In this document: positions 7,133 to 64,000 of the stretch, in pieces
Position numbering within the stretch: position 1 is the stretch's first letter
Layout: each line of letters opens with the position of its first letter
Source of the DNA: a virus
Taxonomy: Duplodnaviria; Caudoviricetes
Strand: one strand, 5' to 3'
Length of the DNA: 64,000 nucleotides
Virus record (IMG/VR): IMGVR_UViG_3300012016_000699
Location: 37,964 to 101,963 of that record
Made by a program: the position numbers and the translations under genes
The notes under the pieces: generated by a model
Told to the model about the DNA's origin: nothing
What the model saw: only the letters and a program-made list of their open reading frames with translations
Database searches by the model: none

Positions 7133-7435
7133 TTATACTTCTTTCAGCATCTCGTCGAGCTGCGGGTTCACGCTCAACAGGATGAAGGGAGCAAAGCCTG
7201 CGTTGATGAGATCGCGAACAGTTTTCAGTTCTTCATCCGTCAGCTCCACTTCCTCGTGGTGATAGACCTTCTGTCCCAGCTCGGAGATACGAATATCCTT
7301 CCCGCCATAGAACAGACCGTTTCCGAGTGCTTTGGCAAAGTCATAGGGCACTTTCGCCCCCGCCTTGTCTGCCACCTTATAAGGCTTGCCGTCGATGTCC
7401 TTTACGACAATCTTTGAAAAGTCAATCTTTCTCAT
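7133..7435 (-). CDS. Conserved Bacteroidota phage hypothetical protein
   Basis: MRKIDFSKI..DIDG..LGNGLF..EVELTDEE pattern commonly seen after tail-tip genes. Confidence 0.65.
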   Translation of the reverse strand: MRKIDFSKIVVKDIDGKPYKVADKAGAKVPYDFAKALGNGLFYGGKDIRISELGQKVYHHEEVELTDEELKTVRDLINAGFAPFILLSVNPQLDEMLKEV

Positions 7436-18180: not shown

Positions 18181-18849
18181 ATGAAGATTATCTCCTACAA
18201 CATCCACCACTGCACACAGGAGAAGGTGGACAACATCATCAGACGCGGGGCGGACGTGTGCATCCTTCCCGAGATGTCAGATCCGGCAACGATGGCCATT
18301 CCAGCCGGATTCAATGCGTTCTGGACGGGCGACATCAGCTGGAAAGGGCTCGGCGTCATCGTCCGTCCCGGCATACAGGCAAGGGTTCCGGATTGGTTTA
18401 ACCCATCCAGCAAGTACTTCATCCCCCTCATCGTCAAAGGCATGCTGATAATTGCAGCCTGGCCGACGCGCAGGGAGTCCAATGAGCCGAAGGGCTACCC
18501 TCAGATAGCGCTGGAAGGCATCAGGGAGTATGCCGTGCACTTTGACGCATTTCCGACACTCATCAGCGGAGACCTCAACCTCTACATGGGGCAGCAGGAC
18601 GAGACGGAGGAATACTCCCTCCTGTCCTTCGCATCCCTCCTCAGACGCTACGGCATGGTAAGCGCCTACCATCACTTCACCCATGAGCTGTTCGGCGAGG
18701 AGTCGGTGGCAACCTATTACCACAGGTTCGACGAAAGCCAGCCGTTTTTCCTTGACTACACGTTCACGAACATTCCTGTGAAGAGGTACAGGCTCGTGAA
18801 GTGGAACGCCGGCTTCAGCGACCATGTGGCACAGTTCATAGACATCTGA
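18181..18849 (+). CDS. Endonuclease/exonuclease/phosphatase (EEP) family protein; moron
   Basis: MKIISYNI, DVCILPE, ISGDLN, FFLDY, FSDH; own promoter and terminator; opposite strand. Confidence 0.85.
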   Translation: MKIISYNIHHCTQEKVDNIIRRGADVCILPEMSDPATMAIPAGFNAFWTGDISWKGLGVIVRPGIQARVPDWFNPSSKYFIPLIVKGMLIIAAWPTRRESNEPKGYPQIALEGIREYAVHFDAFPTLISGDLNLYMGQQDETEEYSLLSFASLLRRYGMVSAYHHFTHELFGEESVATYYHRFDESQPFFLDYTFTNIPVKRYRLVKWNAGFSDHVAQFIDI

Positions 18850-32329: not shown

Positions 32330-32355
32330 ACGTTAATTCCTTGTTGTTCTACGGT

Positions 32356-32418
32356 TTTGATTAAAATCTTATTTGCATAGACAAAGATACAAAGAAATTA
32401 TCAAATATGCAAGTTTTT
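32356..32418 (-). promoter_or_regulatory. Repeated promoter/leader, copy 1
   Basis: Minus strand TTGCATATTTGATAA..TATCTTTG (32382-32389)..GCAAATAAGAT. Confidence 0.85.
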
Positions 32419-32468: not shown

Positions 32469-33869
32469 TTACTTTCTCTTGGATATCTCCTGCACCTCCT
32501 CGTCGGTGGCCTCGGGGAACCCGAACACCTTGAGGGCGTCCTGGTGACGGCCGTAGCGTACCTTGTTGGGGAGCTGCATATTGAACTCATAGATAAGCGC
32601 CTCGCGGTACTGCTGCTCGGTCAGCTCACGGACCTTCGTGCAGCCGAAGCCGAAGTAGCCGGACTTCTCGTAGGTGACGAAAGGCTCCAGGCCGAACTTC
32701 GCAGGCAGCGCGTCGTACTGCTCCTTGCGCAGGAACTTCTGGAAGAACCACTGTCCCTGCAGGATATACGCCGTGAGGCCGTTGTCATCAAGGAAACGGA
32801 CGGACAGGCCGCCGTCGGTGGTGCAGCGCTTGGCATCGATCAGCTTCTCCACATTGGCCCTCATGCGGCCGGAGAAGAACACCTTGCCGCCCATCTTGCA
32901 GAACAGGTTGAGGCACGTCAGCACACTGTCCTCCGCGAACTGGCTGACCACGGAGTTGATGACGGCATCACAGATGACGTAGTCGAAACGGCCGTGCTTC
33001 TGGTAGTGGGAGAAGAACTTGTCGATCATCTGGTGTCCCTTCTCTACGGAGATACCAACGCGGTTGTGGTTGAAGAACTCCAGTCCGATGGCGTTCCTGT
33101 AGTTGTGCTGCATGCGCACCTTGTCGATGCACATCGCCTTGCCGCATCCGAAGTCAAGGATGTTGATGTCCTTCGGCTCTTCCAGCAGCCACTTCACCAC
33201 CTGGCGGTAGAGAATCGACCAGTCGATGGCGGCATGGCGGGGAGGCTGTGCAAGTCCCTGCTGGAACTCCGGGCAGTCGAGCGCGTCATAGCAGAACACG
33301 CCATAGTCCTGCTTGAAGTAGTAGTCGAAGACAGAACGCTTCTCGGCCTCCAGAACGTAGGCATGGACGGGGATATCGAGCCGCTGGCAGGCATACACGT
33401 AGTTGTTGCCGAACACAACCTCGCCGTCGCAGATGATGGCGCAGAGGGCATCCTTGTAGCGCATGATAAGGCCGCACATGTCCTTCACCAAGGTCGGCTG
33501 GCACTGGGGCAGGTCGAAGTCGGTGTTTGGAATCTCCGTGTAGAACTGTGCCGGTGCAAGGTCGCCCTTGAACCTGCCAAGCGTCTCAGGCTCATGCTCC
33601 ACGCCGTTGTGGATGAGGTTGAACAGCATCTCGTCCTGCAGCTCTACACCATGGACGTAGAAGCAGGGTACCTCCTCGATGCCTACCTTCGTAGCGGCCT
33701 TCGTGCGCTGGTGGCCGGCGATGATTGTCATGTTGTCTTTGTTGATGATGATCGGCAGGATAAAGCCGAGGGTCTTCAGGCTGCCTTGCAGCTCGACGAA
33801 GGCAGCCTCACTGAGCTTGCGGGGGTTGTACTCCGCAGGGTGGATTTCACTGATTTTTACGTACTCCAT
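32469..33869 (-). CDS. ParB/Srx-domain + SAM-dependent methyltransferase
   Basis: PAEYNPRKLS, IIAGHQRTKA, degenerate second ParB (VVFGNNY), ILDFGCGK, DAVINSV. Confidence 0.85.
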   Translation of the reverse strand: MEYVKISEIHPAEYNPRKLSEAAFVELQGSLKTLGFILPIIINKDNMTIIAGHQRTKAATKVGIEEVPCFYVHGVELQDEMLFNLIHNGVEHEPETLGRFKGDLAPAQFYTEIPNTDFDLPQCQPTLVKDMCGLIMRYKDALCAIICDGEVVFGNNYVYACQRLDIPVHAYVLEAEKRSVFDYYFKQDYGVFCYDALDCPEFQQGLAQPPRHAAIDWSILYRQVVKWLLEEPKDINILDFGCGKAMCIDKVRMQHNYRNAIGLEFFNHNRVGISVEKGHQMIDKFFSHYQKHGRFDYVICDAVINSVVSQFAEDSVLTCLNLFCKMGGKVFFSGRMRANVEKLIDAKRCTTDGGLSVRFLDDNGLTAYILQGQWFFQKFLRKEQYDALPAKFGLEPFVTYEKSGYFGFGCTKVRELTEQQYREALIYEFNMQLPNKVRYGRHQDALKVFGFPEATDEEVQEISKRK

Positions 33870-33871
33870 AG

Positions 33872-34561
33872 TTATCTAGCGTTAAGTTTGCTTACAATAT
33901 CCTTCACAAAGCCGAAGTCCACACAGGCGGTATCGACATACTCCTCGTACTTCTCGCGCAACAGGTCGTACTCCTCACGGGTGACAGGCACCGAATACTT
34001 GCCGAAGCTGAGCATGTCTATCTTCTTCACGCGGCTGCCCTTGATGGAGGTGACGACGGTGGGATCCTTATCGGGGTCGTAGAACACGCCCTCGTCCACG
34101 CCGAAGCTCACCAGCGTCACCTCGTCGAAGAGGATCTCGGCCTTGTCGTAATCGAACTCGGCGAACTCCCTGTTTCCCTTGATGATGACCTCCTTCTTCC
34201 GCTCCTCGGTAAGACCTTCGTGGCGGTCAACGATGACCACAGGGTTCTCCTTCCACTTCTCCCAATAGCCGATGACGGCTTCCTTCTCGTTCTCACTCAT
34301 GGCCTGGTAGCGGTCGTTGTCCTGCAGGACCACCTTCCATGCGAAAGGCTCCTTGGCCAGTATCTCCTCCTGCAGCACCTTCACGCGCTGGTTGCCCTCA
34401 AGGACAACGTTGTCCTCGTCGATGACGATGAGCTTCGCCTCGTTGAGCATCTTGGGAAAGAGCATGACGCTCTGCTGGAGCCTCTTCAGCCGTGCCGCCG
34501 TTATCTTACGCGGATTGATGGGGTTCTGCTTTAACTCGTTGACATTTATTTGCTGTATCAT
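33872..34561 (-). CDS. ParB/Srx N-terminal domain protein
   Basis: NPINPRKI, VLEGNQR. Confidence 0.8.
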   Translation of the reverse strand: MIQQINVNELKQNPINPRKITAARLKRLQQSVMLFPKMLNEAKLIVIDEDNVVLEGNQRVKVLQEEILAKEPFAWKVVLQDNDRYQAMSENEKEAVIGYWEKWKENPVVIVDRHEGLTEERKKEVIIKGNREFAEFDYDKAEILFDEVTLVSFGVDEGVFYDPDKDPTVVTSIKGSRVKKIDMLSFGKYSVPVTREEYDLLREKYEEYVDTACVDFGFVKDIVSKLNAR

Positions 34562-34564
34562 GGC

Positions 34565-35338
34565 TTAGTCCTCCTGTTCGTTTTCGGGTTCAACTTCCTG
34601 TTCGCTCTCTTCCTCCGCCTCGGTGTCCTCGTCCTTCTCTCCGTAGAGTATGGCCTCCTGGAGCTCCGTGTCACCCAGCAGCCATGCGAGGAATCCGTCG
34701 GTCTTGTCGCCGTGCCTGCTCTTGTACTCCTCCACCAGCTGCTCCAGACTCTCGTACTCGGCATCGGTGAGGAAGAACTCGACATAGCCGCACTTGAAGG
34801 TCTTCATGGTAATCTTATTCTTGCCGGCCTCAACGTCGTTGATCTTGTCGGCGTAGTCGTAGAGGTCCCAGCTGACACTTCCGAAGAAGTCGCAGATGAG
34901 GTCGCGGCTAAAGAACTTACGCAGCATTTCGGGATCGTCCTCTCCGGAGTGCAGGTTCTCCTTCATCAGCAACTCACGCTTCTCCTCCTCGCTGAATGTC
35001 TCTATGGTACGGCAGGGCACTTCCGGGTTGGACTGCCACTGTAGCCAGTACTGGATGAGGTTACGCTGCTGCTCCTCTGCCATTTCACGGTAGATAGTCT
35101 GCTGGACCAGCATGTCCTCTATTGTGTCTTCGTCCATTTCAAGGATAGCACGAAGGGACTTACAGCGGTGGTTGCCGCTCCAGATTACGCTCTCGTTGTC
35201 GATCTTGATGGGGTTGATGGCCATCATCCAGGGAGAGAGCAGGAGGCTCTGGGTCAGTTTCTCCTGCATGAACTCCGTGATGGTCCTCGGGTTCAGCGGG
35301 TTAATGACTAACTCCCTTACGTTTACTAACTTATCCAT
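34565..35338 (-). CDS. ParB/Srx N-terminal domain protein (paralog of 33872..34561)
   Basis: NPLNPRTI, IWSGNHR. Confidence 0.8.
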   Translation of the reverse strand: MDKLVNVRELVINPLNPRTITEFMQEKLTQSLLLSPWMMAINPIKIDNESVIWSGNHRCKSLRAILEMDEDTIEDMLVQQTIYREMAEEQQRNLIQYWLQWQSNPEVPCRTIETFSEEEKRELLMKENLHSGEDDPEMLRKFFSRDLICDFFGSVSWDLYDYADKINDVEAGKNKITMKTFKCGYVEFFLTDAEYESLEQLVEEYKSRHGDKTDGFLAWLLGDTELQEAILYGEKDEDTEAEEESEQEVEPENEQED

Positions 35339-35378
35339 TTTTTGCTGTAATGTTGAGATTTGATTATGAAAAACGGTG

Positions 35379-35433
35379 CAAATATAATCATTTATCGTAA
35401 CTTTTACGACTTTTTACGATATAAAATGATTAT
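35379..35433 (-). promoter_or_regulatory. Promoter of the ParB cluster with overlapping inverted repeat
   Basis: TATATTTG at 35379-35386; ataatcatttatcgtaa / ttacgatataaaatgattat imperfect palindrome. Confidence 0.6.
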
Positions 35434-35457
35434 TTTTGTGAATTTTTAGGTCTAAAG

Positions 35458-35489
35458 TTTGGATAATCGGGCAAAAGTGCCTAATTTTG
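35458..35489 (+). promoter_or_regulatory. Consensus Bacteroidota sigma-A promoter facing against phage transcription
   Basis: TTTG (35458-35461), 20-nt spacer, TAATTTTG (35482-35489). Confidence 0.75.
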
Positions 35490-35492
35490 CAT

Positions 35493-35619
35493 ATGAGATT
35501 AATACAATTCCAAACTGTTCTGCCTCGATGCCGTTTGGCGGGAGGTCACTTTTTGCGATTTGATATTATCTTATTTGCTTAAAAAAGGACTGGCTGTGAA
35601 GCTCGTCCTTTCTTTTTTT
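35493..35619 (+). ncRNA. Putative multi-target antisense sRNA (~125 nt)
   Basis: Bounded by a promoter and an intrinsic terminator; segments complementary to several phage mRNA leaders. Confidence 0.6.
35581..35619 (+). terminator. Intrinsic terminator (possibly bidirectional)
   Basis: aaaggac-tggc / gctc-gtccttt hairpin followed by a T7 run. Confidence 0.75.
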
Positions 35620-35636: not shown

Positions 35637-35671
35637 AAAGAAAGGCAGACCGTCGGTAGTGACAGCCTGCC
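35637..35671 (-). terminator. Intrinsic terminator of the early cassette
   Basis: Minus strand ggcaggctgtc-actacc-gacggtctgcc-tttcttt. Confidence 0.75.
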
Positions 35672-35673
35672 CG

Positions 35674-35729
35674 TGGCGGGGTAACAGAACATTCCAGTTG
35701 CAAATAGATAATAATCCCGGCCCCCGCCA
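35674..35729 (-). other. 3'-UTR stem-loop whose loop is antisense to the repeated leaders
   Basis: tggcgggg/ccccgcca stem enclosing aacagaaca and ttgcaaatagataataatc (plus-strand text). Confidence 0.65.
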
Positions 35730-35734
35730 GTGGT

Positions 35735-38628: not shown

Positions 38629-38752
38629 AATGTTGTTCTGTTTAAATTGTTTGATTATCATCTTATTTGCAATACAAAGATACGAAAATGTAATCAAATA
38701 TGCAAGTTTTTACGGAATTATTTTCGTTAAACAAAGTTAATCAAATTTGCAA
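38629..38752 (-). promoter_or_regulatory. Repeated promoter/leader, copy 2
   Basis: TATCTTTG at 38675-38682; leader GCAAATAAGATGATAATCAAACAATTTAAACAGAACAACATTATG. Confidence 0.9.
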
Positions 38753-39906: not shown

Positions 39907-40028
39907 AACTGTTCTGTTTTTAAAGTTTGATTATTATCTTATTTGCAATACAAAGATACAAAAAAATAATCAAATATGCAAGCTTTTACGAAAAAACTTC
40001 CGTTAAATAGAGTTAATCAAATATGCAA
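39907..40028 (-). promoter_or_regulatory. Repeated promoter/leader, copy 3
   Basis: TATCTTTG at 39951-39958; two TTGCATATTTGATTA boxes. Confidence 0.9.
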
Positions 40029-50795: not shown

Positions 50796-50927
50796 TTGTT
50801 CGGACTTTTTTAGAGTGATTATCATCTTATTTGCAATACAAAGATACAAAGAAATTATCAAATATGCAAGAAATTACGATATTATTTTATAATCCAATAC
50901 GTTAAAATGAGTTAATCATATTTACAA
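50796..50927 (-). promoter_or_regulatory. Repeated promoter/leader, copy 4
   Basis: TATCTTTG at 50839-50846; leader ends TCCGAACAAATG. Confidence 0.88.
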
Positions 50928-55337: not shown

Positions 55338-55470
55338 AATGTTGTTCTGTTTAAATTGTTTGATTATTATCTTATTTGCACTACAAAGATACAAATAAAT
55401 AATCAAATATGCAAGTTTTTACGGGTTTAATTTTATCTTATCTGCTAAAAATAGTTAATCAAATATACAA
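55338..55470 (-). promoter_or_regulatory. Repeated promoter/leader, copy 5
   Basis: TATCTTTG at 55384-55391; leader nearly identical to copy 2. Confidence 0.9.
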
Positions 55471-60939: not shown

Positions 60940-61913
60940 ACGGCCTCCAGCTGGTTAAAGATCTTCTTGTCTGTAATCTGGTCCCTGTGTCCCTTTATCC
61001 ACTCCACGAAGCTCTCGACCATGTATGTCAGCTTCTCCACACACTCGTCATGGTCGTAGGCATAGAACTCGGGATAGTAGTCGAATCCGTACACGTCAAA
61101 ACTGGTGAACTGTGGTATTTGCTCGATGTAGTTCTCCTTCTTGCCGCCGGACGCCAGTATCTTATCTATATCCACCTGTCGCTTGGTGGCAGGGTCGAAG
61201 TACGACGGCTTGATTTCGCACCAGTTCCACAGGTCGCTGTCCTGCATGATAGCCGGAGACTTGCGCTTCGTCCACTTCAGCACGGAATACTCGAAGGCGA
61301 GGATGTCCTTCATCTGGCCAGACTCGATCAGGCAGTACGGATAGACGAACCGTTGCCAGTGGTCCTCGAACTTGCCGAAGGTGTAGTAGCCTCCCGTCGT
61401 CTTGAGGTCATATACCACGTCGCGCTTCAGCTCGTCGATGTAGCCGTACAGCTCCACGTTGCCGTAGGCAGTAGGCAGAATCCCCTTGACGAAGAGCTGA
61501 CAGCAGCTGCCCTTGAAGAAGTCGGCGATGTTCCTCGCACTTGTGAGGTCGTAGTGGAAGAACTCCACGGACCCGTCTGGCTGCTGAAAACGGGCTGCTA
61601 TAAGCCCGTGCTCACGGAACGTCTTGAAGGTGATGTCGTCACGGAACGACTTACGGCCACGGTGCAGACAGTCCACAAGCTCGTTGAACACAGTGCCGTT
61701 GTCGGCGGCCAGCGAATGGAACGGCACACGGTTGATGGAGTTGAGGAGACTCTGGGTTGCCTCGTCCTCTATTTGCGCAAGTGTCTTCTTGTAGTCGCCG
61801 GTCTCGCGGTCGATGTTCCACGGAGCCTCCAGATCCTTCTCCGCATTGAGAAGCGTCTGATACTTGTCGAGCAGGGAAGGGTATATCCTGTATGCTATTC
61901 CTTCCCTGTTCAT
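60936..61913 (-). CDS. PD-(D/E)XK nuclease-like partner of Sak4
   Basis: YPSLLD, YGYIDEL..VYDLKTT, WQRFVY. Confidence 0.75.
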   Translation of the reverse strand: MNREGIAYRIYPSLLDKYQTLLNAEKDLEAPWNIDRETGDYKKTLAQIEDEATQSLLNSINRVPFHSLAADNGTVFNELVDCLHRGRKSFRDDITFKTFREHGLIAARFQQPDGSVEFFHYDLTSARNIADFFKGSCCQLFVKGILPTAYGNVELYGYIDELKRDVVYDLKTTGGYYTFGKFEDHWQRFVYPYCLIESGQMKDILAFEYSVLKWTKRKSPAIMQDSDLWNWCEIKPSYFDPATKRQVDIDKILASGGKKENYIEQIPQFTSFDVYGFDYYPEFYAYDHDECVEKLTYMVESFVEWIKGHRDQITDKKIFNQLEAV

Positions 61914-62875
61914 GCCGCAGACGTGTACTTGGAACTCAGTTTGTCATACTTCAGTCCGAGCGAGGTACACTTCTCATGGAGCACCTGCTTCCAGTAGAGC
62001 TCACTGTCGAATATGACCTCAAGGCCGGACAGCTCCGTGAACATGGCGTTTGCCGAGTCCGCATCCTTGACGGTGGCCACCTTCTCGTCGATGACCTCCT
62101 TCAACGTGTCGTACTGCGCCAGCTGGTTGTTGCGCTCCGACTGCGACATCGTGTACATGCGGATAATGTCGGTGAGGAACGTGTTGCGGATGACGTGCCC
62201 CTTGGCATCCTTGGCCATGTCGCCCTTCTCGTCGAGGATGACGGGAACCTTCAGCTTCGGCGGGAGGTTGCACGCGTTCTTTGCGTAGTAGCGCTCGTTG
62301 GGGGTGAAGCTTATGACACGGTCGTTGCCGATGATCTCCAGGTAGCCGACGAGGTCGAGCTCCTTGATGAGGTCTCCGGCGGATGAGCCACCGATCTCAG
62401 GGCGTATCTTCTTGATCTCGCCGTCCTTCTCCTCACGGTCGTGGGCGATGAAGACAAGGTTCTTGCCCATCGTCAGCACCTGCTGGATGAAGTTGTTGAA
62501 CATCACCTTGCGGACGCCGTACTCATTCAGGGTCAGTGAACGGGTCGGGTTACGGTCACGGCTGCCTGCGATGATGAACTTGTCCATGAAGGACAGCATC
62601 TTGCCTGCAGTGTCGATGACGATGGTCTTGAAATCCTTCACCTCATCACTCTGGAGCGCCTGCCCCACTTCAGACCAGTCCGTCACCTGGAGGATCTCGA
62701 CTTCCGAGAGGTGTGCGGCATTCACACGCTGGATTCCGCCGTCGAAGTCAAACACTGCCACAGGCCCAGGGGCGCTTACTGCAAGACTTGACTTGCCTGC
62801 ACCAGGCTGTCCGTACACGAGGATGCTGATAGTTTTCTTCTCCGTCAGCTCAGAGGCTTTCTTAAATAATCCCAT
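61910..62875 (-). CDS. Sak4-like AAA recombinase
   Basis: YGQPGAGKS, TIVIDT, FIAH, ELDLVGY, YAKN. Confidence 0.88.
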   Translation of the reverse strand: MGLFKKASELTEKKTISILVYGQPGAGKSSLAVSAPGPVAVFDFDGGIQRVNAAHLSEVEILQVTDWSEVGQALQSDEVKDFKTIVIDTAGKMLSFMDKFIIAGSRDRNPTRSLTLNEYGVRKVMFNNFIQQVLTMGKNLVFIAHDREEKDGEIKKIRPEIGGSSAGDLIKELDLVGYLEIIGNDRVISFTPNERYYAKNACNLPPKLKVPVILDEKGDMAKDAKGHVIRNTFLTDIIRMYTMSQSERNNQLAQYDTLKEVIDEKVATVKDADSANAMFTELSGLEVIFDSELYWKQVLHEKCTSLGLKYDKLSSKYTSAA

Positions 62876-62960
62876 AATTAAAAAAATTGATTAAGAGTAA
62901 TACAATTCCTATTTGCTTTGCAAAGATAGTCATATATTCTGATATACGATTGCAGAAACT
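62876..62960 (-). promoter_or_regulatory. Divergent promoter/leader (copy 6) of the recombination operon
   Basis: TATCTTTG at 62921-62928; leader AAGCAAATAGGAATTGTATTA. Confidence 0.65.
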
Positions 62961-62968
62961 TGGATATT

Positions 62969-63172
62969 TTACGATTTTATATCGTAATTATTACGACCTT
63001 GTTTCCGATAGAGTCTGTGCCACAAATTCTTGATTTTGTCATTTTTGAGGTAGCAAAACGTCCCGACTGCGATAGCTGCGACCGGAAAAATCCAGCTTCC
63101 CGTGACAGATGCGCATGCAACCGCAAAGGCTGCAGCTTCCTCTTTCCATGACGGCACCTGAAAATCATCCAT
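62969..63172 (-). CDS. Small membrane protein (start revised to ATG 63172)
   Basis: TAATG coupling; hydrophobic core. Confidence 0.5.
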   Translation of the reverse strand: MDDFQVPSWKEEAAAFAVACASVTGSWIFPVAAIAVGTFCYLKNDKIKNLWHRLYRKQGRNNYDIKS

Positions 63173-63420
63173 TATAGAAATCTTTTGTCTGGTTTGACGT
63201 AGGCTACGACCTCCACGGCATTGAAGCGCCACATCGTATTGGCTGCACCCTCGCGCTTGGTGGCGTGGATTTTGCCTTTCGTGAGCAAGTCCTTCAATCT
63301 CTTCTCGCCGCCGAGCAGCTTGACCGAGAGGTTCCAGGAGAACTCGACACCCTGCAGCCTGCCGAGCAGGCTCTTGAAACGGATCTCACTCTCGGAACGT
63401 CCGAAGCGGTCTAAAGCCAC
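63172..63420 (-). CDS. Small DNA-binding/excisionase-like protein (GTG start 63420)
   Basis: LLGGEKRLKDLL..GKI...WRFNAVEVV. Confidence 0.55.
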   Translation of the reverse strand: MALDRFGRSESEIRFKSLLGRLQGVEFSWNLSVKLLGGEKRLKDLLTKGKIHATKREGAANTMWRFNAVEVVAYVKPDKRFL

Positions 63421-63794
63421 TCCCTCGTCCTGCTTCTCTGGCCGCTTCCTCCACCTCGTGCCCTCACCGAGGTATTGGTCCTCCTTGCAGAGCGCATCTG
63501 TCGCTCCGGGGAGTTGCCCATCACCGCCGTAAACAGCAGCAGGAAGGCGAGAAACGCACTTAGCCCCCGCAGGCGTAGCTCCCGCAGGTTCCACTCTTTC
63601 CCGAGATACCTGCATACCATGTACAGCACCAGTTCGTGGGTACTGGATATGCCGAGTTTCTGGTAGATGTGCCGCTTGTGGTTTCTGACCGTCCATATTG
63701 GCTTGTTTACTTGCTCAGAGATTTCCTTGTCTATCAACCCGTGACAGTATAGCTCCGCTATCCGGAGCTCCGTCGGGCTGAGTGACGCCTTCAT
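63411..63794 (-). CDS. LuxR-type HTH regulator
   Basis: LSPTELRIA..GLIDKEIS..TVRNHKRHIYQKLGI..EL. Confidence 0.88.
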   Translation of the reverse strand: MKASLSPTELRIAELYCHGLIDKEISEQVNKPIWTVRNHKRHIYQKLGISSTHELVLYMVCRYLGKEWNLRELRLRGLSAFLAFLLLFTAVMGNSPERQMRSARRTNTSVRARGGGSGQRSRTREWL

Positions 63795-64000
63795 TTTAGC
63801 CTTGTCACCAGTACCGTGAAGGCCTCGGTATCAGTCTCTAACTTGGCATCCCACCCGATGCGCATGTTGTCCGTCCGCATCCTGTTCAGCAGGACGTTAA
63901 CGCTGGAGCGCTGTTCGATGGGGAACTCGCACTTCTCACCGACCTCCAGCTTACGAAGCGTGGACATGATCGGCAGCTTCTTGACTTCTAATGTCTCCAT
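63791..64000 (-). CDS. Small conserved phage protein
   Basis: TLRKLEVGE...FP; ATG at the window edge. Confidence 0.6.
   Translation of the reverse strand: METLEVKKLPIMSTLRKLEVGEKCEFPIEQRSSVNVLLNRMRTDNMRIGWDAKLETDTEAFTVLVTRLK

Follow-up and report, generated by a model that had tools for sequence, protein, structure and literature searches.

The CI RNA of P4 is an immunity factor that acts on the early lytic leader through bipartite pairing. It is cut from the transcript that it controls, replaces a protein repressor, and controls one operon. In P1, icd is a short ORF that follows the c4 target site. Regulation through dispersed DNA sites for repressor proteins is represented by the C1 operators of P1 and the stoperators of L5. 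To our knowledge, the phylum to which Bacteroidales belong has no Shine-Dalgarno sequences. The c4 RNA of the temperate phages P1/P7 pairs with a leader near the translation start through separated segments, while Sar (P22) and OOP (lambda) have their own promoters, are cis-encoded with one target, and tune the lysis-lysogeny circuit beside a protein repressor (PMC12197685). Within the literature searched, including the accessible part of that review, c4, Sar, and OOP control one operon each. Among host RNAs, the GibS-type sRNAs of Bacteroides are metabolic regulators that act in trans through long AT-rich pairing regions, in a phylum that has no Hfq or ProQ homologues (PMC7366714).

The locus described here lies in a 64,000-nt stretch of DNA (the window), which is the last 64 kb of a 102-kb viral record classed as a provirus. 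Judged from its sequence, it holds a member of a real, conserved, and apparently undescribed RNA gene family carried by prophages of gut and rumen Bacteroidales. The RNA probably silences a set of tagged lytic operons together, as a second lock beside a repressor protein. It resembles c4 and P4 CI in action and is a member of neither. With c4 it shares separated segments, here predicted to pair with a leader near the translation start, as well as a site in a cro-like leader that precedes a predicted short ORF ahead of the regulated gene (9/9 leaders), and its phage-specific pairing could likewise set immunity groups. In contrast to c4, which is processed from its target operon and exposes its recognition segments in loops, the RNA has its own promoter and terminator and is predicted to form a long hairpin with a toehold. 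Moreover, about a dozen operon targets are predicted, none recognised as an antirepressor, and the C4 Rfam model has no match here even at E-values up to 5. Like P4 CI, the RNA would act on the leader of an early lytic transcript through bipartite pairing, but it is encoded ~28 kb from the switch, in a phage that also has a gene for a CI-like protein. It shares an own promoter and a place beside a protein repressor with Sar and OOP, yet it is trans-encoded, imperfectly complementary, and multi-target. GibS-type sRNAs offer the same long AT-rich pairing regions and action in trans, whereas this RNA is phage-borne. The C1 operators and L5 stoperators also combine one regulator with a repeated, oriented tag across the genome; here, however, the evidence favours RNA–RNA pairing, and a separate repeat is the likely operator.

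Bacteroides goes unmentioned in the 2025 review of phage small RNAs, whose accessible part describes no RNA of such scope (PMC12197685). The literature searched, in which subscription journals are poorly covered, holds no description of this RNA and nothing on such RNAs in Bacteroidales prophages. Matched to a tag on about a dozen operons whose roles range from replication to packaging, a single RNA could have the effect of a global repressor. Such a system would show multi-target RNA control in a phylum without Hfq, ProQ, or Shine-Dalgarno sequences.

Anatomy and Conservation of the RNA Gene

The gene and its immediate surroundings comprise the following features.

35379..35412, minus strand: promoter of the divergent ParB-like operon (context; not a predicted target)
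35458..35489, plus strand: promoter of the Bacteroidota housekeeping type, -33 TTTG and -7 TAATTTTG (consensus from PMC7366714)
35494..35619, plus strand: predicted small RNA of ~125 nt with predicted ends (fold z -4.8; 27 distinct homologues)
35494..35511, plus strand: segment a, the 5′ arm, predicted to pair with the Sak4-operon leader in trans and, while the RNA is free, with its own 3′ arm
35513..35522, plus strand: segment b, complementary to 10 nt directly ahead of the AUG in several cassette genes, in this clade only
35522..35546, plus strand: inner GC-rich hairpin, kept as a hairpin with variable sequence
35544..35556, plus strand: segment first assigned to ParB, which fits the cro-like leader better (11/12 nt)
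35559..35580, plus strand: segment c, the 3′ arm, complementary to the first ~20 nt of leaders and containing the invariant core TCTTATTTGC, whose last bases are the predicted toehold
35584..35619, plus strand: intrinsic terminator, with double-sided changes in its stem among homologues

A preliminary description, made from the sequence of the window, had proposed a master antisense RNA at this locus. The promoter that it reported, TTTG-N20-TAATTTTG, is present, and the ~125-nt unit from promoter to terminator, with its inner hairpin, is real and faces against phage transcription (123/125 called ORFs of the window are on the minus strand). From this promoter the RNA would be transcribed as an independent unit. 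The same description placed the leader matches in single-stranded parts of the RNA, and here the predicted fold disagrees: segment a is paired with segment c, such that 35494-35573 form one long hairpin (z -4.8), followed by ~10 open bases (~35574-35583) as the only open stretch, a short 3′ toehold, and then the terminator. No Rfam family is matched by the window at the gathering score, and a relaxed E-value gives chance-level matches only; the Bacteroides sRNA BTnc231 (RF04180) reaches 17.9 bits versus a gathering threshold of 80.4.

Twenty-seven distinct homologous sequences from Bacteroidales phages and prophages adjoin the same ParB-like gene (ParB 43-89% identical). Loci with a ParB-like protein 43-64% identical have the same anatomy, with the RNA gene upstream of and divergent from the ParB gene. 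The long hairpin is predicted in 27/27 homologues (z -2.4 to -6.0), the distance from the -7 box to the hairpin is constant in all 27, and the strand to which the promoter points folds better than its complement in 26/27. TCTTATTTGC ends the hairpin at the foot of the stem in 27/27; this motif belonged to the search pattern, yet nearly every locus reaching that position matched. The three closest relatives keep the sequence from the predicted start through the terminator, and their promoter spacer has diverged. Double-sided changes are present in the terminator and the inner helix and are few in the basal stem, which is expected if targets also constrain that stem. Part of the toehold is also predicted to be paired in several homologues, and segment b is not seen in distant clades.

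An imperfect inverted repeat at 35376-35436, kept in close relatives, lies between the divergent ParB and RNA promoters and may be a binding site that co-regulates both. The ParB side of the locus (32469-35338, minus strand) holds three tandem genes for ParB N-domain proteins, the last with a weak methyltransferase match, and these are family-wide neighbours of the RNA gene.

Leader Complementarity and Predicted Targets

A tag, GCAAATA(A/G)G, occurs 4-5 nt after the -7 box at ten near-identical promoter cassettes and at the Sak4 promoter. Eleven promoter-proximal leaders of the phage start with the complement of the invariant core of the RNA. With the published promoter consensus (PMC7366714), the tag would lie at about +1 of the lytic transcripts. 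Three more copies of the tag precede genes without an adjacent -7 box. Outside the window, at ~7200-7230 and 23830 of the genome, tag copies (one tandem) lie before genes without an adjacent -7 box and are possible internal target sites. The targets predicted within the window are listed below, together with a second unit that carries anti-leader segments.

62876..62916, minus strand: leader of the Sak4/replication operon (rank 10/124, -10 kcal/mol)
55338..55379, minus strand: cassette leader (rank 8/124)
50796..50834, minus strand: cassette leader (predicted)
39907..39946, minus strand: cassette leader (rank 1, -20 to -23 kcal/mol; pairing from +1 through the AUG)
38629..38670, minus strand: cassette leader (-17 kcal/mol)
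32330..32376, minus strand: operon leader into terminase and virion genes (rank 3; position conserved in many relatives)
35638..35732, minus strand: weaker second unit with anti-leader segments, in the 3′ end of a lytic operon and convergent to the RNA gene (closest clade only)

The individual matches of the preliminary description are all present. RNA positions 35500-35511 equal 62898-62909 and 35572-35580 equal 62910-62918 in the Sak4-operon leader, and 35513-35522 equal 39907-39916, a sequence that also precedes two genes outside the window. Segment c matches five cassette leaders exactly over 15-16 nt and five more over 11-14 nt. The two pieces assigned to the ParB leader are literally present; the start region of ParB, however, ranks only 102/124 in co-folding, and this leader is rejected as a target, its segment fitting the cro-like leader better. 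On the same strand, 14 exact matches of at least 11 nt are found versus 1.6 expected from dinucleotide shuffles (maximum of 9 in 2000 shuffles, p 5e-4); the opposite strand has only two such matches to the unit. The estimate of six or seven target operons was too low, since ten cassette leaders and the Sak4 leader are found genome-wide.

The preliminary description expected its leaders to rank top among possible targets. When the full-length RNA is co-folded with 124 start regions, ranks 1-11 all go to windows that contain a leader, with energies of -20 to -10 kcal/mol, the median of start regions being -4.6. Two further leader windows rank 16 and 20 because the start call shortened them; the corrected window of one gives -17 kcal/mol. 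A duplex scan of the whole genome that ignored accessibility returned mostly GC-rich noise and is excluded as evidence. In the complex predicted for the leader at 39946, segment c covers +1 to +21, the inner hairpin is looped out, and segment b extends up to the AUG. For the Sak4 leader, the predicted pairing is limited to the toehold and segment a, and the match to segment a is kept in two relatives that have different Sak4 leaders. Most first genes behind the leaders have no recognised function, with Sak4-like and cro-like genes among them.

The second unit consists of a GC stem that encloses anti-leader segments, followed by a terminator, with compensating stem changes in the closest clade only. 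It co-folds weakly with leaders (-7 kcal/mol at best). In this phage, an inverted repeat is seen between each cassette promoter and its own leader; by eye, this repeat looked absent in two distant clades.

Co-Variation of RNA and Leaders

The relatives hold up to 10 tagged promoters each, and in one host genome 6/8 pattern matches are on the prophage contig. Every RNA pairs better with leaders from the phage that carries it (18 groups, p 1e-5). When groups are collapsed to eight clades, the preference for own leaders persists with an exact p of 7e-5 and an advantage of -4.5 kcal/mol, and shuffling the variable part of the RNA reduces this advantage to -0.1 +/- 0.5 kcal/mol. The own RNA is the best partner in 5/8 clades, and clade L043, represented by a single atypical leader, shows no preference for it.

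In a DNA-symmetric alignment, transitions giving G-U outnumber those giving A-C by 8:0 in cro leaders and 56:13 in cassettes, counts in which the same RNA positions are reused across leaders (and are thus non-independent) and which are uncorrected for base composition. This lean toward G-U favours RNA pairing over similarity at the DNA level. With its own promoter and terminator, no conserved ORF, and imperfect complementarity that co-varies with distant targets, the RNA would group with the trans-encoded base-pairing sRNAs. The central proposal of the preliminary description, that a single antisense RNA acts in trans on many lytic leaders, is well supported computationally by promoter-to-terminator conservation, loss of the ORF, the top ranks of leaders, and the between-clade co-variation of RNA and leaders.

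The CI-Like/Cro-Like Switch

Two contigs identical to the window over 61910-64000 reach beyond the record into a switch region. Just outside the record, a divergent 194-aa gene with weak matches to HTH regulators faces a small cro-like gene, with promoters face-to-face, and the same layout is found in the relatives examined. The names CI-like and cro-like reflect position and weak profile matches, and the CI-like gene would encode the repressor. A separate sequence, TTGC-N5-TGAT(T/A)A, has 15 genome-wide copies, all at cassette promoters and on the lytic strand, and similar copies occur at the CI/cro switch. From this placement it is likely an operator.

39967..40028, minus strand: example of the operator-like repeat TTGC-N5-TGATTA, which lies over cassette promoters and upstream of them

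The repeat TTGC-N5-TGATTA usually occurs twice per cassette, 47 or 57 bp apart. The presence of a CI-like HTH gene and of this repeat at nearly every cassette promoter means that global control does not rest with the RNA alone. The word “master” in the preliminary description is thus abandoned, and sole regulation by the RNA is rejected for a phage with its own CI-like repressor gene.

In the leader of the cro-like early operon, the tag is internal, and this leader has the longest site matching its own RNA. The cro-like leaders of six relatives have 28-43 identical complementary positions to their own RNAs (exact p 0.0014, with the pairing of RNA and switch assumed for WM24, where they are on different contigs). 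In three or four relatives, the match extends into the 5′ strand of the RNA’s terminator, and the tag site lies ~100 nt before the cro-like AUG in relatives. The site of this phage has 28 matching positions, among them the segment once assigned to ParB, but its co-folding in short windows is weak, at -6 kcal/mol. In 9/9 cro-like leaders, a start codon (ATG in seven, TTG in two) is 31-35 nt away from the site. The short ORF that it opens is predicted and non-conserved, with the same spacing geometry as the cassette leaders.

Transcripts from the face-to-face promoters of the CI-like and cro-like genes would overlap by ~15 nt in L158 (1198-2248), L101 (413-1470), and L100 (860-1363), and in the cro-like leaders of these three relatives a small hairpin immediately precedes the tag. 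In the window, the cro-like gene is followed directly, at 63411-63794 (minus strand), by a gene for a LuxR-family HTH protein, which has an unannotated neighbour of its own before the Sak4 promoter. The Muribaculaceae-type relative G003 has no LuxR-family HTH gene at that position.

Proposed Mechanism and Alternative Explanations

The most likely reading, in which we have fairly good confidence on the strength of sequence comparison, is that the RNA is a toehold-gated, trans-acting antisense repressor of lytic transcripts that backs up a protein repressor. About 11 lytic transcripts would start with the same tag at +1, and the cro-like early operon has a further copy of the tag within its leader. 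Unbound, the RNA would be a long hairpin in which most of the antisense arm is hidden and a short toehold is open. The unstructured 5′ end of a lytic mRNA would pair with the toehold and displace the 5′ arm, forming ~20 bp. In this clade, the freed 5′ part would add a second helix, by segment b near the AUG or by segment a on the Sak4 leader. The duplex is proposed to keep ribosomes from loading, both on the leaders of 30-55 nt and on the short ORF that precedes the cro-like gene; it may also provoke decay or premature termination. The RNA would most likely damp leaky lytic transcription in the lysogen and upon superinfection, as a second layer beside the CI-like protein. The provirus classification of the record and an integrase in a relative count for a temperate-phage antisense RNA. 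Weighing against this mechanism are the predicted pairing of most of the antisense arm, the weak co-folding of the cro site in this phage, the failure of L043, and the few double-sided changes in the basal stem.

A tentative and less likely extension is a two-layer lysogeny switch in which every lytic promoter marks its transcript with the tag, a single toehold-gated RNA silences all of these transcripts, and the cro-like leader is the dedicated counter-partner of the RNA. Made first on induction, this leader would pair with the RNA over up to 40 nt, open its terminator, and remove it, freeing the other operons at once. If so, phage-specific pairing would define immunity groups.

The main rival, itself rather unlikely, is that the RNA pairs with leaders without maintaining lysogeny, serving instead in the timing or shutdown of early genes in the course of lytic growth, in protection of mRNA 5′ ends, or as the regulated partner of a cro-like leader that acts as a sponge and opens the RNA’s terminator on induction. 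The promoters in question already have operator-like repeats and a protein repressor to control them, and a second anti-leader unit is carried on a lytic transcript. Three or four relatives have a cro-leader match that continues into the terminator on its 5′ strand, at a site ~100 nt before the AUG, which points the same way, and AsxR is a phage precedent for pairing with a terminator (PMC12197685). Against this reading, the duplexes predicted on unstructured leaders overlie or come close to the region where translation starts, and the promoter of the RNA is of the host type without the doubled operator-like repeat, such that the RNA should be active in the lysogen. A duplex at the translation start of a leader usually represses.

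An improbable alternative places the function in DNA, the tag being an asymmetric repressor operator or the unit a relic of a rearranged promoter cassette that recombination keeps similar. Across clades the 10-bp core does not vary, and it overlaps both the lytic +1 and the -33 box of the cI-like promoter, and a common operator specificity would also yield similarity within a phage. However, the matches span 20-40 nt with bulges of variable size, their mismatches lean to G-U over A-C, one copy is at the foot of a conserved hairpin between promoter and terminator, and another repeat has the placement expected of an operator. Still less probable is that the RNA is a protein decoy mimicking the tagged leader duplex, or a guide that brings a factor to the open promoter: the 5′ arm does resemble a leader, and the hairpin thereby a leader duplex, but the co-variation is with mRNA leaders, the internal cro-leader site included, and a shallow look beside the RNA revealed no conserved candidate partner gene. 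That the unit encodes a 29-aa peptide has next to no probability. An ATG-started frame of 29 codons does begin at 35493, but indels shorten it in the closest relatives and 18/27 homologues have no ATG in the first 15 nt, and the peptide is rejected.

Distribution

Contigs with an identical Sak4 protein come from gut metagenomes. Relatives are found in assemblies titled Bacteroidaceae, Muribaculaceae, Porphyromonadaceae, and Barnesiella sp. WM24. GenBank phages give zero DNA matches and distant protein matches only. An integrase gene terminates one relative; the record and its closest relative have no integrase match, and the integrase of the record may lie beyond the called boundary. An exact 18-nt search returned three true homologues and six chance matches. 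When 401 genomes of the order were scanned with a pattern, 16 matches were obtained versus three with a reversed control, and among the 16 only the known WM24 prophage has the hairpin-terminator shape, indicating that the element is rare among species representatives. Barnesiella sp. WM24 is a cultured carrier, and the eight clades provide natural cognate and non-cognate RNA-leader pairs.

One of the two plus-strand ORFs of the window (18181-18849) has its own promoter and no PHROG match and is possibly an accessory gene expressed in the lysogen. In L017, a contig of G009, the RNA gene is ~1.9 kb upstream of ParB, with a tagged cassette between the two.
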